A stretch of DNA of 42,146 bases from an uncultured Rhodocyclaceae bacterium (GTDB lineage: Bacteria; Pseudomonadota; Gammaproteobacteria; Burkholderiales; Ga0077523), in the NCBI GenBank assembly GCA_964641005.1, contig CAZXJW010000002.1, positions 1 to 42,146 of the forward strand, written 5' to 3'. The notes below the pieces were generated by a model, which was not told where the DNA came from, searched no databases, and worked only from the letters and a program-made list of their open reading frames with translations. Shown here piece after piece: positions 503-28,155 of this stretch (its first letter is position 1; every line of letters starts with the position of its first letter). The position numbers were made by a program, and so were the translations under genes.

Positions 503-1684
<1,182 letters not shown>

Positions 1685-1767
1685 GCCACCGGCCCTGTTC
1701 AGGTCAGATTGAAAGGCCGGGCAGGATAGCAGAACCACCCGGCCCCCAGATAGGTCGCCGCCCGGCG

Positions 1768-2643: not shown

Positions 2644-3512
2644 CCACCGTCGCGGTGCGCACGGTGCTCGCGCTTCTGTGGCTGCTGCACTTCCTGCCGG
2701 TGCGGCTGCTCGCGCCACTGGGCGCGGGCCTCGGGATGCTGCTGTTCGCCCTGTCCGCCGAGCGTCGCCGGGTGGCGCGCACCAACCTCCGGCTGTGCTT
2801 CCCCGATCGCGACCCGGCCTGGCGCGAGCGGGTGCTGCGCGCCCACTTCCGCTGCTTCGGCCGCAGCCTCGTGGAGGGGTCCATCGCCTGGTTCGGCTCC
2901 GAGACCCGGCTGCGCTCGGTGGTGCGCGTGGAGGGCCTGGAGCACCTGCGCAACGCCGGCGAGCGCGGCTTCATCGGGCTGGTGCCGCACTTCTGCCCCC
3001 TCGACCTGGAGGGCATCCGCATGACGCTGGAGTTCCGCGGCATGGCCGTGTATGCCCACCAGAAGAACCGCTACTTCGACGAGTTCCTGGTGCGGGTGCG
3101 ATCGCGCTTCAACGGCGCGCGCATGGTGGCGCGCCAGGAGGGCGTGAAGACCATCATCCGCGGCATGCGCGACGGGTACGCCCTGCAGCTGTCGCCGGAC
3201 ATGGACCTGGGCGCGCGCGATGCGCTGTTCGTGCCCTTCTTCGGCGTTCCCGCGGCCACGGTCACGGTGCTCTCGCGCCTGGCGCGGCTCACCGGCGCGG
3301 CCGTGGTGCCCTTGGTGATCCGCCAGGAGCCCGGCGGCTACGTGATCCGCATCCACCCGAAGTGGGACGGGTTCCCCGGCGCGGACGTGGAGTCCGACAC
3401 CCGCCGCATGAACGCCTTCATCGAGGCCTGCGTGCTCGAAGCGCCCGAGCAGTACCTGTGGCTGCACAAGCGCTTCAAGACCCGCCCCGAGGGCGAGGCG
3501 CGGATCTACTGA
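2640..3512 (+). CDS. Lipid A biosynthesis acyltransferase family protein (LpxL/LpxM-like), copy 2
   Basis: The start ATG at 2640 overlaps the previous stop (ATGA). The product reads [20 protein letters not shown]..., with VPHFCPLD and [12 protein letters not shown] motifs. The upstream extension of ORF 2187..3512 is an R/A/G-rich shadow. Confidence 0.85.
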
Positions 3513-6529: not shown

Positions 6530-7717
6530 GTGTTGCGCATCCATCTCAAGCCCGGCCGCGAGAAGTCGCTGGGCCGGCGGCATCCCTGGATCTTCTCCGG
6601 CGCCATCGCCCGCATCGAAGGTGATCCCGGGCCCGGCGACGTGGTGGAGGTGCGCTCGGGCCAGGGCGGCTTCGTGGCCTGGGCCGGCTTCAGCCCCACC
6701 TCGCAGATCCAGGCCCGCGTCTGGGACTGGCACGAGCGCACCCGCGTGGACGAGGCCTTCATCGCCGCGCGCATCGGGCGGGCGGTGGAACTGCGCAAGT
6801 TCCTGGTGGAGCCCGGCCCGCGCGCCGCGATCCGGCTGGCCAACGGCGAGGCCGACGGACTGCCCGGCGTGGTCATCGACCGGTTCGCCGACACCCTGGT
6901 GCTGCAGCTCACCAGCGCCGCGGCCTGGCGCTGGCGCGACGCCATCGCCCGCGCGGCCATGGAAGCCACCGGCCTCGAGCGCGTGTTCGAGCGCTCGGAT
7001 GCCGACGTGCTCGCGCTCGAGGGCCTCGAGCCGCGCGTGGGCACGCTCGCCGGGCCCGAGCCCGACGGCCCGGTCACCATCGAGGAGGGCGGCCTCGCCT
7101 TCCAGGTGGACCTGCGCTCCGGCCACAAGACCGGCTTCTACCTCGACCAGCGCGACAACCGCGCCCTGCTGCGCGACCTGGCGGAGGGCCGCGAGCTGCT
7201 GGACTGCTTCTGCTACACCGGCGGCTTCGCCGTGAACGCGCTGGCCGCCGGCGCGGCCCACGTCACGGCCATCGACAGCTCCGGCGAGGCCATCGCCGCG
7301 GCGCGCCGCCACATCCGCATGAACGACCTGTCCGAGGCACGCGCCGACCTCATCGAGGTCGACGTGTTCCAGCAGTTGCGCCGCTTCCGCGACCAGGGCC
7401 GGCAGTTCGACGTGATCGTGCTCGACCCGCCCAAGTTCGCGCCCACCGCGGCGCATGCCGAGCGTGCCGCCCGCGCCTACAAGGACATCAACCTCTGGGC
7501 GCTCAAGCTGCTGCGCCCGGGCGGCCTGCTGTTCACCTTCTCGTGCTCGGGCGGCGTGCCGCGCGAGCTGTTCCAGAAGATCCTCGCCGGCGCCGCCGTG
7601 GACGCGGGCGCCGATGCGCGCATCCTCCACCACATGGGTGCCGCCGCCGACCATCCCGTGGCCCTCGCCTTCCCCGAGGGCGACTACCTCAAGGGGCTGC
7701 TGTGCCAGACGGTGTGA
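6530..7717 (+). CDS. Class I SAM-dependent rRNA methyltransferase, RlmI-like (PUA domain plus methyltransferase domain)
   Basis: The product begins VLRIHLKPGREKSLGRRHPWIFSGAI. It carries the SAM motif LLDCFCYTGGFA and a VLDPPKF motif. The GTG at 6530 lies 2 nt after the xerC stop, and the longer upstream ORF is a read-through shadow. Confidence 0.85.
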   Translation: MLRIHLKPGREKSLGRRHPWIFSGAIARIEGDPGPGDVVEVRSGQGGFVAWAGFSPTSQIQARVWDWHERTRVDEAFIAARIGRAVELRKFLVEPGPRAAIRLANGEADGLPGVVIDRFADTLVLQLTSAAAWRWRDAIARAAMEATGLERVFERSDADVLALEGLEPRVGTLAGPEPDGPVTIEEGGLAFQVDLRSGHKTGFYLDQRDNRALLRDLAEGRELLDCFCYTGGFAVNALAAGAAHVTAIDSSGEAIAAARRHIRMNDLSEARADLIEVDVFQQLRRFRDQGRQFDVIVLDPPKFAPTAAHAERAARAYKDINLWALKLLRPGGLLFTFSCSGGVPRELFQKILAGAAVDAGADARILHHMGAAADHPVALAFPEGDYLKGLLCQTV

Positions 7718-10340: not shown

Positions 10341-11246
10341 ATGAAGACACTGATCCGCATCGCCCTCGCGGCATGCCTCGCGGCCGGCCTGCCGGCCCAT
10401 GCCACCCTCGAGGTGTTCGCCTGCTCGCCCGAGTGGGGTTCGCTGGTGAAGGAGATCGCCGGCGAGCGCGCCAGCGTGTACGTCGCCACCACCGCCACCC
10501 AGGACATCCACCGCATCCAGGCGCGGCCCAGCCTGATCGCCCGCGCGCGCATGGCCGACCTGGCCGTGTGCACCGGCGCCGAGCAGGAGGTGGGCTGGAT
10601 GCCCCTGGTGCGCAACCAGTCGGGCAACGACAAGATCCAGCTCGGCAGGCCTGGCTTCCTCGAGGTGGCCAACTACGTGCCGCGCATCGAGGTGCCCACG
10701 GTGATCGACCGCGCCATGGGCGACGTCCACCCGGTGGGCAACCCGCACATCCAGTGGGGACCGCGCCAGATCCAGCTCGGCGCCAACGAGCTCGCCAGGC
10801 GGCTGTCGCAGATCGACCCGGCCGGCGACGCCGAGTACAAGCGGCGGCTGGCCGACTTCACCGCCCGGTGGAGCGCGGCCACGGCACGCTGGCTCGAGAT
10901 GGGCGCGCCTCTCAAGGGCGTGGGCGTCATCCAGCACCACCGCAACTACTCCTACCTGTTCGAGTTCCTCGGCATGCGCCAGGTGGCCTCGCTGGAACCC
11001 AAGCCCGGTGTGGAGCCCACCTCCTCCCACCTCAACGACCTGGTGCAGCAGCAGCAGGCCGAGCCCGCCCGGCTGATCGTGCGCGCCTCCTATCACGCGC
11101 CCGCCGCCTCGGAGTGGCTGGCACAGCGCATCAAGGTCCCCGCCGTGATGCTGCCCGCCACCGTGGGCGGCACCGAGGCGTCCCGGGACCTGTTCGGGAT
11201 GTACGACGAGGCGATCCGCCGCATGCTGGCCGCGCTAGGATCGTGA
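10341..11246 (+). CDS. Periplasmic metal-binding protein, ZnuA/TroA (cluster 9) family, divergent
   Basis: The product has a signal peptide and His-containing ligand contexts (QDIHRIQARPS, HPVGNPHIQ). Its length and position ahead of the ATPase and permease fit a metal ABC importer. Confidence 0.75.
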   Translation: MKTLIRIALAACLAAGLPAHATLEVFACSPEWGSLVKEIAGERASVYVATTATQDIHRIQARPSLIARARMADLAVCTGAEQEVGWMPLVRNQSGNDKIQLGRPGFLEVANYVPRIEVPTVIDRAMGDVHPVGNPHIQWGPRQIQLGANELARRLSQIDPAGDAEYKRRLADFTARWSAATARWLEMGAPLKGVGVIQHHRNYSYLFEFLGMRQVASLEPKPGVEPTSSHLNDLVQQQQAEPARLIVRASYHAPAASEWLAQRIKVPAVMLPATVGGTEASRDLFGMYDEAIRRMLAALGS

Positions 11247-25729: not shown

Positions 25730-27187
25730 TCAGCGAAGCTCGGCGGCCTTGAGCTCGCGCTTCCAGAGCAGCCGTCCGGCCGCATCGTAGGCCTCGAGCG
25801 CGAGCACCCGCGCCGCCTTCGGCCCGGTGACGCGCAGCAGGCCGAAGCTGCGCTGCGTGAGCAGCGTGCCCTCCACGAGATCGGGATTGGCGCGCTCGTT
25901 GTCACCGGGATTGGTGGCCACGCCACCGGTGAGCGGCGAGGAGGTGAACTCGAACAGCGGGTAGGCGCCGGCGCGCTCCAGGCGCAGCAGCTGGGAGAAG
26001 TGCCGGTCGCCGGAGACGAACACCACGCCGGGAATGCGCCGCTCGGTGATCCAGTCAAGCAGCTCGCGCGCCTCGTCGGGGTAGTTCTGGAAGCTCTCGA
26101 AGCGGCTCACGCGGTTCCAGAACTGCGTGCCGCCGGCCACGATGCGGAAGGTGGCGCGCGAGGACAGCAGCGCCTGCTTGAGCCACTCCATCTGCTGCGC
26201 ACCGTACAGGCGCTTGGCGGGCACCTTCGGATAATCGTTGGGATGGCGGTACCAGCGGTCGTCGAGGACGAACACCTCGGCATCGGCGAGCGCGAACTGG
26301 GTGAACACGCCAGGCACGTCGGGCAGCCCGTGTGTGGGATTGGGCCAGTAGCGGCGGAAGGCCTGGAGCGCCGCGCCCTTGTGGATGAACGAGCCGTCGG
26401 CATCGTTGGGGCCGAAGTCGTGGTCGTCCCAGGTGGCGTAGTGGTGGGTGCCGCGCCACAGCGCCGCCAGTTCGGGCAGCGCGCGGTGGAAGCGGTAGCG
26501 CGCGCTCATGCCCTCGAGGCTGGTCCACTCGGGCTCGCGGAAGTAGACGTTGTCGCCCAGCCAGAGCATGGCGTCGGGGTTCTTCGCGGCGATGGCGTCG
26601 AAGATGCCGTACTCGGCGCCCCACGGCGTTCCCGGCCGGTCGAAGCGCCCGTCGTTGAGGTAGGCGCAGGAGCCGATGGCCATCGTGGCCTCGGGCGGGT
26701 CGGTGCGGTACTGCCACAGCGGGCGGGTGCGGAAGCGGCCGCCGCCGGCCTCGGCGCCGTCCACCGTGAGGCGATAGCGATACGCGGTGCCGGGTTCGAG
26801 GTTGGCGAGTCGCAGCACCGCGACGAAGTCGTCGTCCTCCATCGTGGCGCGCTCGAGCCGGCGCGCCTGCGCGGGCGCGGCCTCGGGATGGAACTCCACG
26901 GCAACCCGGGCCGCTGCAGGGGTCTGAACCCACAGGGAGAACAGCGACTGGTCCACGGGGCCGTGCATGATGGAGACCGCGGGCGGCGCGGCGGGCGCGG
27001 TGCACGGCAGGGCGAGAACGGCCAGACATGCGAGCCGGGCGAAGGCGCGGCGGGCGAATCGGGCGCAGTGGAATCCCCCCCGGCCCCCCTTCTTCGAAGG
27101 GGGGAGAAGGCACCATCCACGGCCATGGGTGGTCTCCCCCCTTCGAAGAAGGGGGGCCGGGGGGGATTCGCAGTGGAGGGATCTCAT
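25730..27187 (-). CDS. PhoD-like alkaline phosphatase/metallophosphatase with a Tat-type signal peptide, carrying an in-frame 105-bp repeat-element insertion after codon 6
   Basis: A PhoD_N-like domain (YRYRLTVDG) and metallophosphatase motifs GDNVY and WDDHDFGPND are present. The N-terminus reads MRSLHC, then a 35-aa insert, then ARFARRAFARLACLAVLALPCTA. There is no in-frame ATG, GTG or TTG between the element and the signal peptide, so 27187 is the best start. The start remains uncertain. Confidence 0.75.
   Translation of the reverse strand: MRSLHCESPPAPLLRRGETTHGRGWCLLPPSKKGGRGGFHCARFARRAFARLACLAVLALPCTAPAAPPAVSIMHGPVDQSLFSLWVQTPAAARVAVEFHPEAAPAQARRLERATMEDDDFVAVLRLANLEPGTAYRYRLTVDGAEAGGGRFRTRPLWQYRTDPPEATMAIGSCAYLNDGRFDRPGTPWGAEYGIFDAIAAKNPDAMLWLGDNVYFREPEWTSLEGMSARYRFHRALPELAALWRGTHHYATWDDHDFGPNDADGSFIHKGAALQAFRRYWPNPTHGLPDVPGVFTQFALADAEVFVLDDRWYRHPNDYPKVPAKRLYGAQQMEWLKQALLSSRATFRIVAGGTQFWNRVSRFESFQNYPDEARELLDWITERRIPGVVFVSGDRHFSQLLRLERAGAYPLFEFTSSPLTGGVATNPGDNERANPDLVEGTLLTQRSFGLLRVTGPKAARVLALEAYDAAGRLLWKRELKAAELR
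27071..27169. mobile_element. MITE/REP-like palindromic element: perfect 37-bp inverted repeats, 25-nt centre, flanked by the 6-bp direct repeat GCAGTG
   Basis: The arm at 27071-27107 is the exact reverse complement of 27133-27169. GCAGTG occurs at both 27065-27070 and 27170-27175. Each arm also contains its own hairpin (CCCCCTTC-TTC-GAAGGGGG). The termini GAATCCCC/GGGGATTC match the REP unit at 428-452. Confidence 0.8.
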
Positions 27188-27270
27188 CAAGCGCACTCGA
27201 TCGTCGTCAACCCGCCCAAGCATCGCACGCGCATTGCGCGCGCGCACCCTCGCATCCTGCCCGCGCCGCG

Positions 27271-28155
27271 CTACGGCGCCGTGACCGCCACGCTCCTGAT
27301 CGGCGCCGGGCAGGCGAGGGCCTCGAACTCGGCGGCCATGGCGCCGGTCTTCTCGGCCACGCGCCGCTTCTGGGCCTCGGTCATGAGCGACGACACCTCG
27401 GCGATCATGGCGAAGGTGCGGGCGCGGTTTCCCTCGAGCTTGGCCTGGAGTGCCGGCGTGTACCAGCGGTCCGGCTCGGCGAGCAGCTCCTGAAGCCGGG
27501 CGCGCAACCGCTCGGGATCGTCGCGACGGGTCTGCAGCGCGTCGCGCAGCGCCTTCTGCCAGCGCTCGCGGCTGGCCAGGACGTCGGCCTGGGACGGCTC
27601 GAGCGAGGCACTCCAGCGCTCCACCGCCTGGCGCTGCTCGCGGGTGAGCGAGCCGGCCCAGAACTCGAGCCGCTCGCGGGTGCGCGCCGCGCGCTCGGTC
27701 GCCACCTCGGGATAGGCCACGTCCACGTACTCCTTGCGGTACTTGCGGTTGGCCTTGTCCATGGCGCGCGCGAGCTCGTCGAGCTGGCGGTCGGTGAGGC
27801 TGCGCGCCAGCCCGGCCAGCCGCGGGCTGGCTTCCTCGGCCATCACGCGGCCGAAGAAGCGCACGTTGTCGAAGCGCGCCTGCACCTGCACGGGCGTGGT
27901 GCCCTCGCGCAGTTCCGTGCCCACCTGGCGCAGCCAGGCCGCGTAGCCGCCCACCTGGGTGCGGCAATGCCACTGCTTGAAGTCGGTGAGCTGGCGGGCG
28001 AGGGCCTCGGACTGGCGGTCGTCCAGCGGGATGTAGCTCTCCAGGGTCCATGCGATGACGCGCTCGGCCTGCCCGTAGGCGAACTGCACCCGCGAGCAGC
28101 CGGCGCCGGCGAGGACGAGGGTGGACAGCAGCAGGAGCGCGGCGGTTCGGTGCAT
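27271..28155 (-). CDS. Putative lipoprotein of unknown function (possibly DUF6279-like)
   Basis: I chose the start at 28155, giving MHRTAALLLLSTLVLAGAGC with the lipobox LAGAGC. The remainder is helical and charged. Confidence 0.65.
   Translation of the reverse strand: MHRTAALLLLSTLVLAGAGCSRVQFAYGQAERVIAWTLESYIPLDDRQSEALARQLTDFKQWHCRTQVGGYAAWLRQVGTELREGTTPVQVQARFDNVRFFGRVMAEEASPRLAGLARSLTDRQLDELARAMDKANRKYRKEYVDVAYPEVATERAARTRERLEFWAGSLTREQRQAVERWSASLEPSQADVLASRERWQKALRDALQTRRDDPERLRARLQELLAEPDRWYTPALQAKLEGNRARTFAMIAEVSSLMTEAQKRRVAEKTGAMAAEFEALACPAPIRSVAVTAP

Follow-up and report, generated by a model that had tools for sequence, protein, structure and literature searches.

A probable REPIN-like palindromic doublet inserted in frame in the signal-peptide region of a PhoD-like phosphatase gene

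The stretch of DNA analyzed here, hereafter called the window, is 42,146 nt (42 kb) long and carries on its minus strand (25730-27187) an open reading frame (ORF) of 485 amino acids (aa) for a PhoD-family phosphatase, in which a 99-nt palindromic element lies close to the start codon. A Pfam search of the product returned PF09423 (E = 2.7e-23), with PF25077 and PF16655 ahead of PF09423, i.e., the succession of a PhoD_N-type domain and a PhoD metallophosphatase domain by which PhoD-like phosphatases are recognized, in agreement with the identity proposed in a first-pass annotation made from the letters of the window alone. The ORF translation also agrees with the reading given there: the protein begins MRSLHC, continues through 35 inserted aa, and proceeds to the signal peptide ARFARRAFARLACLAVLALPCTA... 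(ARFARRAFARLACLAVLALPCTAPAAPPAVSIMHGPVDQ... at the junction). The element was inserted after codon 6 and makes up codons 7-39, the second His-Cys being codons 40-41. The added DNA, which consists of the element and one flanking duplicate, amounts to 105 nt or 35 residues, so that the frame is preserved whatever the insertion point, and no stop codon is introduced. A special mechanism for the in-frame position is unneeded; selection removes disruptive insertions.

No in-frame ATG, GTG or TTG is found between codon 1 (27187) and Met74 (26968), and the signal peptide has no alternative start, as had been remarked. The public annotation of the same protein (P0130, 412 aa), identical to the window protein from MHGPVDQ onward, starts at the ATG of Met74 (26966-26968, minus strand) and drops both the signal peptide and the element. 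Given that Met74 falls within the conserved mature domain in the homologue alignment, and that no Shine-Dalgarno-like sequence is found upstream of it, we judge that it is not a genuine start, but probably an annotation workaround, a mis-call caused by the insertion. Two further roles of the element were considered and rejected: an internal translation start in its loop, as the ATGs of the loop and phoD are in different frames, and an intrinsic terminator or promoter, as no consensus sites occur in 26700-27700.

The element itself (27071-27169) is a head-outside doublet of a REP-like (repetitive extragenic palindromic) unit, recognized by its perfect arms, its fold and an empty orthologous site. 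As first described, its two 37-nt arms are 100% complementary and separated by 25 nt; the terminal repeats read GAATCCCCCCCGGCC..., and no other long perfect inverted repeat exists in the window. The left arm (27071-27107, plus strand) is one unit, GAATC7-GG-C6-TTCTTCGAA-G6-AGA, that aligns with 34 units from other loci, and the right arm (27133-27169), found by inverted-repeat search and unit alignment, is the same unit read on the minus strand. Both arms contain an inner hairpin, namely C6-TTC-TTC-GAA-G6 with a 9-bp stem at 27084-27104 and its twin C6-TTCGAAGAA-G6 at 27136-27156, through which each arm is predicted to fold on itself (-17.8 kcal/mol), a property already pointed out in the first-pass annotation. 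Since the 25-nt centre (27108-27132) has a short imperfect palindrome of its own in the RNA and DNA folds, the whole element makes one long hairpin, with a predicted energy of -95.4 kcal/mol for the 99 nt alone, and this structure indeed begins 18 nt downstream of the ATG. Compared with shuffled sequence, the region is far more strongly folded (z = -9.8 as RNA and -12.2 as DNA). The arm core has no second match in the window (0 expected in shuffles). All six frames of the element are open, which is also the case for 12% of random 99-mers from the GC-rich window. No start-to-stop ORF is contained in the element, which is non-coding mobile DNA and does not encode an enzyme. On both sides it is bordered, as had been seen, by the direct repeat GCAGTG, at 27065-27070 (CACTGC on the coding strand, codons 5-6, His-Cys) and at 27170-27175, which corresponds to a single CACTGC in the orthologue.

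This orthologue, the closest homologue of the window protein (P0001, 91% protein identity), starts MRFLHC-KYVPARALHRVLVLL... and lacks the element. Its contigs, L001 and L002, are syntenic with the window (methyltransferase, DUF6279, phoD). The upstream DUF6279 gene (27271-28155, minus strand; Pfam PF19795) has the same order and strand as in the L001 gene table and, together with the spacer to the phoD start, shows 93.9% nucleotide identity between the window and L001. The start, ATG-AGA-TxC-CTC-CAC-TGC, is common to the window and the orthologue: in the DNA alignment, ATGAGAT(C/T)CCTCCACTGC is conserved, after which the orthologue passes directly into signal-peptide sequence, with one CACTGC and no element. 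An empty site of the kind sought by the first-pass annotation is thus provided by a closely related, syntenic gene. The opposite possibility raised there, that orthologues carry a homologous 35-aa segment, was not borne out by the 120 best homologues (345-479 aa; median 442 aa among the 115 of ≥430 aa): none of them contains this segment, and those with a complete N terminus have short N-terminal signal peptides. Comparison of the six-frame translation of the element with 5.8 billion proteins gave only one chance-level match, that of one frame with 1.84 billion representative proteins only one marginal match, and no other ORF in these protein searches carries the exact doublet.

The insertion is also young and foreign in composition. 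The mature part of phoD differs between the window and L001 by 0.023 nonsynonymous (dN) and 0.179 synonymous (dS) substitutions per site (dN/dS ~0.13). With a dS of 0.18 between the lineages, several mismatches would be expected in the 74 arm positions of an older element, while none is observed, indicating that the insertion is younger than the split. Runs of C6 and G6 are ~6-9 times rarer than expected over the whole window (11 seen vs. ~100 expected and 13 vs. ~75, respectively), and 8 of these 24 host-avoided runs fall in the element, which is thus of a composition foreign to the host. As judged from these sequence comparisons, the element is a genuine, recent insertion in the phoD-like gene and not native coding sequence. 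A separate observation concerns the adjacent signal-peptide region (26969-27064), which differs from L001 4329-4433 by a dN of 0.25, compared with 0.023 in the mature domain and 94% identity of the upstream DNA, and by a net 12 nt (4 codons) in length; this divergence could be ordinary fast signal-peptide evolution or a change linked to the insertion.

The arms belong to a family of units that extends far beyond the window. The shared unit is composed of (A)AATC6, three variable bases and the hairpin C6-TT[C/T]nnn[G/A]AA-G6, with the general form (A)AATC6-N3-C6-TTnnnnnAA-G6. Its 9-bp stem is 99.4% paired across 36 units, and the ninth, innermost pair is C-G in 21 units, U-A in 15 and broken in none, the C-G class being fixed by the search string and the U-A class not. 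All 37 nt of positions 27072-27108 of the window recur unchanged in a unit within the murG gene of a contig (L005) from a metagenome-assembled genome (MAG). We found the arm core CCCCCCTTCTTCGAAGGGGGG at 20 loci of the representative-genome collection, of which 13 (~25 units) are in one Deltaproteobacteria-labelled MAG and 3 in another proteobacterial MAG, and at 11 more loci in metagenome contigs; the window has one doublet in 42 kb. These genome and metagenome scans covered one loop variant, and the family sizes are lower bounds. The first-pass reading, which would have failed had no other copies existed anywhere, is thus strengthened by copies of the arm unit in several genomes. In viral contigs, the generic unit pattern, with 24 specified bases, has at least 95 matches, spread over at least 80 loci on contigs with a GC content of 42-72%, for which we infer that far fewer than one chance match would be expected, and Mu-like or P2-like prophage regions account for many of the contigs. 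Against plasmids, a BLAST search with the element gave short chance matches only. Neither the window nor 29 related loci had an Rfam match above the gathering score, the weaker matches being generic microRNA hairpins and DUF3800-IV (33.8 vs. 60.7 bits), and a full-text literature search retrieved no paper with the unit motif or its encoded peptides.

Some larger arrangements of the unit were noted in passing. A conserved repeat of ~160-200 nt in L003, L004, L021, L025, L027 and L029 embeds the C6-TTCTTCGAA-G6 hairpin; in this repeat the 3-nt spacer is replaced by an additional GGCGCC hairpin, and GCGGCCGGGC-AAGCCCG-type hairpins recur further downstream. One proteobacterial MAG and soil metagenomes hold several copies of it, and Rfam has no matching family. 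Among the viral contigs, units bracket a major-capsid-like gene in L103 (10812-12673), and L110 and L063 contain tandem unit arrays resembling mosaic REP clusters; no transposase was seen near the units of these three contigs.

The unit also resides in frame in other genes. In L005 it occupies positions 3259-3302, in the inter-domain linker of murG (...EIGRAEIPPGPPSSKGGEF...), and related or decayed units are found at the murG linker of the MAG or metagenome orthologues P0133/L035, P0134 and P0135/L036, while an 89%-identical murG orthologue, P0132/L034, has a different linker without the unit. The murG linker units encode the peptides IPPGPPSSKGG and PPLKKGGGG. Those of L035 and L036 are located at 573-626 and ~10,500-10,560, respectively, that of L035 being a complete symmetric hairpin, GAAATC6-TGG-C6-TTTGAAAAA-G6-TG-G7ATTTC. 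Elsewhere in L036, a 76-nt unit dimer (7527-7602) nearly fills the short mraY-murD spacer of the cell-wall gene cluster, and the called murD start (TTG at 7579), which lies inside it, is probably wrong. The FAD-oxidase_C / Fer4 / CCG ORF of L033 (642+ aa) has a head-outside dimer of 94 nt in frame (1057-1150), which separates the Fe-S domain from the CCG domain; the centre of this dimer measures 25 nt, and no duplication flanks it. Finally, the portal gene of the Haemophilus phage SuMu contains one in-frame unit (...RFAKSPLAPLFQRGEDY...), read in the same frame as ESPPAPLLRRGE of the window, at L117 2501-2535 (NC_019455 15687-15721; translation ..KSPLAPLFQRGE..), and this unit is absent from the 84%-identical portal of the Mannheimia phage vB_MhM_3927AP2 (L118). 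SuMu is a Mu-like phage that was purified as particles, analyzed by mass spectrometry and Sanger-sequenced (PMC3447690).

The manner in which the units are combined bears on the kind of element involved. They occur singly, as head-outside dimers (AATC outward, short centre) and as tail-inside dimers (AATC inward) with variable spacers; tail-inside pairs with unrelated spacers of 30-100 nt are the rule in the MAG JANRJF01. In this MAG (L007-L022), the loop is TTCTTCGAA in one partner of a pair and mostly TTTTTCAAA in its counterpart, the spacers of 30-100 nt are not conserved, and the pairs often adjoin gene starts or ends. We collected 16 head-outside dimers, including those of the window, L033, L046 and L082; the L033 dimer has a 25-nt centre like the window element and arms that are nearly the same. 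None of the 15 dimers other than the window copy has a flanking direct repeat of ≥3 nt, and the SuMu singlet sits in an A-run with no clear duplication. The absence of flanking repeats from the other dimers suggests that the family, as a rule, does not duplicate its target, which fits single-strand mobilization of an HUH- or RAYT-like kind (RAYT, REP-associated tyrosine transposase) better than a DDE transposase. REP families are known to occur as singlets and as head-head and tail-tail dimers with variable spacers (PMC3733652), and a head-head REP doublet folding into a hairpin is termed a REPIN (PMC3116915). As 15 of 15 other dimers lack a duplication, we filed the element as REP/REPIN-like, keeping a miniature inverted-repeat transposable element (MITE) as a live rival. 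The MITE part of the first-pass label, with its apparent target-site duplication, accordingly suits the window copy, with its empty site of one CACTGC, and does not suit the family.

Based on these features, we favour, as the probable reading, that the 99-nt element is a doublet of REPIN layout that was inserted recently and in frame, expression and export of the phosphatase continuing. One head-outside copy entered after codon 6, leaving CACTGC on both sides. Translation would still start at the original ATG (27187), the ribosome having to unwind a hairpin of -95 kcal/mol that begins at nucleotide +19, and the 35-aa extension would be removed with the signal peptide, leaving a mature enzyme that is unchanged and probably made in smaller amounts. 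By analogy with known repeats, a RAYT or an IS200-type single-strand transposase would be the leading guess for the mobilizing enzyme. The insert is rich in Pro, Gly, Arg and Lys, has a net charge of ~+4, and is located in the signal-peptide n-region, where a hydrophilic and positively charged segment is suitable, and we count this in favour of tolerance. In addition, the hydrophobic core and the cleavage region of the signal peptide are untouched, the hairpin is self-contained, and the predicted accessibility of the start region is 0.47 with the element and 0.50 without it.

The export route is better described with less precision than at first. The n/h boundary in the window reads A-R-R-A-F-A-R, on which the earlier label of a twin-arginine (Tat-type) signal peptide was based. 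This label did not hold up: NCBIfam gave no match at the N terminus with or without the insert, its weak matches (PhoD in both constructs, VC0807 for the shortened one) being far below the cut-offs, the [STN]RRxF[LIVM] motif is present in 0 of 115 full-length homologues, and an RR pair is missing altogether from about half of these as well as from the 91%-identical orthologue. From its sequence, the Sec route appears at least as likely as Tat.

Several observations weigh against the favoured reading. On the side of classification, the unit tail is (A)AATC, with no GTAG/CTAC or CGTC/GACG tag; no RAYT or other transposase was found in the 42-kb window, which contains one copy of the element; no locus with both arms, i.e., an identical homodimer, was found in the genome scan, and a dimer-specific gapped pattern had 0 metagenome matches; and the window copy has a clean 6-bp flanking duplication, which is the mark of a cut-and-paste (DDE) transposase and is not expected for RAYT-type mobilization. 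On the side of expression, very stable structure within the first ~40 coding nt is generally tied to low expression in bacteria; 72 N-terminal residues precede the conserved MHG motif, where 93 homologues have a median of 29 and at most 66; the insertion is too young for the intact frame to say anything on selection; and the other in-frame cases are mostly single units, rather than a 99-nt hairpin beside a start codon.

A quite possible alternative is that the same element has silenced the gene. Translation or export would then be blocked by the hairpin at +19 or by the 35-aa insert, and phoD would be a young pseudogene yielding at most a cytoplasmic fragment from Met74. Such a gene would carry just the -95 kcal/mol hairpin seen 18 nt after the ATG and a pre-MHG stretch exceeding that of all 93 homologues compared, the recency of the insertion would leave no visible decay, and the public annotation calls the 412-aa Met74 product only. 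Against silencing, the frame is intact, the predicted accessibility of the start region is unchanged, the insert resembles an n-region, and both murG and a viable phage's portal gene accommodate related units in frame; the Met74 fragment itself would lack a ribosome-binding sequence and begin inside the conserved mature domain. Weighing these sequence features, we consider a tolerated, cleaved-off extension with weakened expression slightly more likely than silencing.

An unlikely origin, in our view, is that of a classical MITE, a deletion derivative of an insertion sequence whose 37-nt ends are recognized by a DDE transposase that makes a 6-bp duplication. The perfect terminal inverted repeats, the length of 99 nt and the lack of coding capacity are those of a MITE, and GCAGTG borders both ends while the empty site of the orthologue has it once, a match of 6-nt flanks that has a chance of ~7e-4 at the base composition of the window. 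The other 15 dimers of the same unit are nonetheless devoid of flanking duplication, and the arms are free-standing units, found single or oppositely paired with unrelated spacers, which MITE ends are not. Furthermore, a search of the plasmid collection detected no parent insertion sequence. No transposase gene was seen in the window, the ORFs inspected at seven viral loci are ordinary phage genes with no transposase among them, and no RAYT was found in the ~8-kb pieces around the repeats. The duplication at the window copy is an exception in the family, the options for it being a different insertion route, a microhomology-guided event or coincidence.

Two last explanations are very improbable: an assembly or sequencing artefact, as the apparently metagenome-assembled contig, its closest relatives being MAGs, might contain a spurious long palindrome, is opposed by arms that match a natural unit seen both in numerous independent assemblies and in the Sanger-sequenced genome of a phage (PMC3447690) and by an internal insertion with precise junctions, a flanking repeat and a preserved frame; and local palindrome formation by template switching or hairpin-primed synthesis in replication, which would account for the perfect symmetry and for a short junction direct repeat acting as microhomology, is opposed by an arm that does not come from neighbouring DNA, has a perfect 37-nt match in a unit of an unrelated MAG and belongs to a family with hundreds of sampled members. 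What stands of the first-pass reading is a mobile palindromic repeat, in frame in a signal peptide, absent from the corresponding site of a relative and present in further copies elsewhere; the MITE label for the family and the Tat label call for correction.

The surroundings of the gene are ordinary chromosome, with metK, a lipid A acyltransferase gene, xerC-like, hslVU-like and glycogen genes, a MacB/HlyD-type exporter and a branched-chain amino-acid ABC transporter. Three hairpins lie 3′ of metK (503-1738, minus strand), at 355-500: a perfect palindrome with a 14-bp stem, CACGGAATCCCC-TTGCGAA-GGGGATTCCGTG (425-455), a degenerate copy at ~470-495 and a terminator-like hairpin at 362-398. The perfect palindrome shares the 8-mers GAATCCCC/GGGGATTC with the ends of the phoD element, GAATCCCC occurring 3 times in the window compared with 0.8 expected, and may be a smaller relative of the repeat family of the element.

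These results have implications for annotation and for the study of small repeats. The public Met74 call loses the export signal, and pipelines could recognize repeat insertions rather than truncate genes. The locus also represents a natural experiment, in which an exported enzyme received a positively charged extension of 35 residues and a very stable mRNA hairpin just after its start codon, with the orthologous empty allele as a control for how much an n-region and an early coding structure can absorb. In-frame palindromic repeats are already known, among the Rickettsia palindromic elements (RPEs) and intragenic REPs, and the phenomenon is not new in kind. The parts worth follow-up are the unit family, its breadth of hosts and phages and its repeated in-frame residence: it is far wider than a usual REP family, is repeatedly tolerated in coding sequence, including that of a viable phage, and makes a tractable case for how tiny palindromic repeats move and add protein segments. 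We propose, tentatively, that the arm unit may define an undescribed REP-like superfamily that has no GTAG/CGTC tag, keeps a near-constant sequence over hosts of 42%-72% GC, which are Beta-, Gamma- and Deltaproteobacteria-like MAGs, and over Mu-like phages, and has repeatedly settled in frame in linkers or signal peptides of working genes (murG, phage portal, oxidoreductase and PhoD). Such a superfamily, if real, would imply a conserved mobilizing or selecting mechanism, possibly carried by phages.

Three known systems are close enough for comparison. Bacterial MITEs (Correia, ERIC, Nezha and others, reviewed in PMC10969869) are, like the element, small and non-coding, with terminal inverted repeats, strong mRNA hairpins and occasional in-frame ORF fusions; the window copy is non-coding, below 300 bp and flanked by a direct repeat. 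It differs from them in that other members have no duplications, no parent insertion sequence was found in the searches described above, and the “terminal repeats” are autonomous units that also exist singly. The RPEs (Ogata et al. 2000), in the part of that work summarized in PMC10969869 and PMC3733652, are palindromic repeats lying in frame in unrelated genes and adding a peptide at permissive sites of host proteins that plausibly function, and the same in-frame insertion was found here in the window phoD, murG, the L033 oxidoreductase and the SuMu portal. According to these summaries, RPEs are ~150 bp long, form an unrelated sequence family confined to Rickettsia and carry a CGTC tag, and their site is a surface loop of the mature protein, in contrast to the cleaved signal peptide used here. 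The element is not an RPE by sequence, its host being betaproteobacterium-like with 72% GC and its unit having no CGTC tag.

The closest likeness is to REP and REPIN sequences (Bertels & Rainey 2011, PMC3116915; survey of GTAG/CGTC REPs by Di Nocera et al. 2013, PMC3733652). There are differences: the tail is (A)AATC instead of the GTAG or CGTC of known REPs, two C-runs are combined with one G-run in the unit, hosts of 42%-72% GC and Mu-like prophages share a nearly unchanged sequence, whereas REP families are usually lineage-specific, the window copy has a 6-bp flanking duplication, and this copy is within an ORF rather than extragenic, a position documented for REPs, dimers included, as an exception (PMC3733652). 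As in REPs, however, the unit joins a conserved single-stranded tail to a short imperfect palindrome, it is found as singlets and as head-head and tail-tail dimers with spacers of 10-100 nt, its copies are generally without target duplication, and the doublet folds as one long or two small hairpins.

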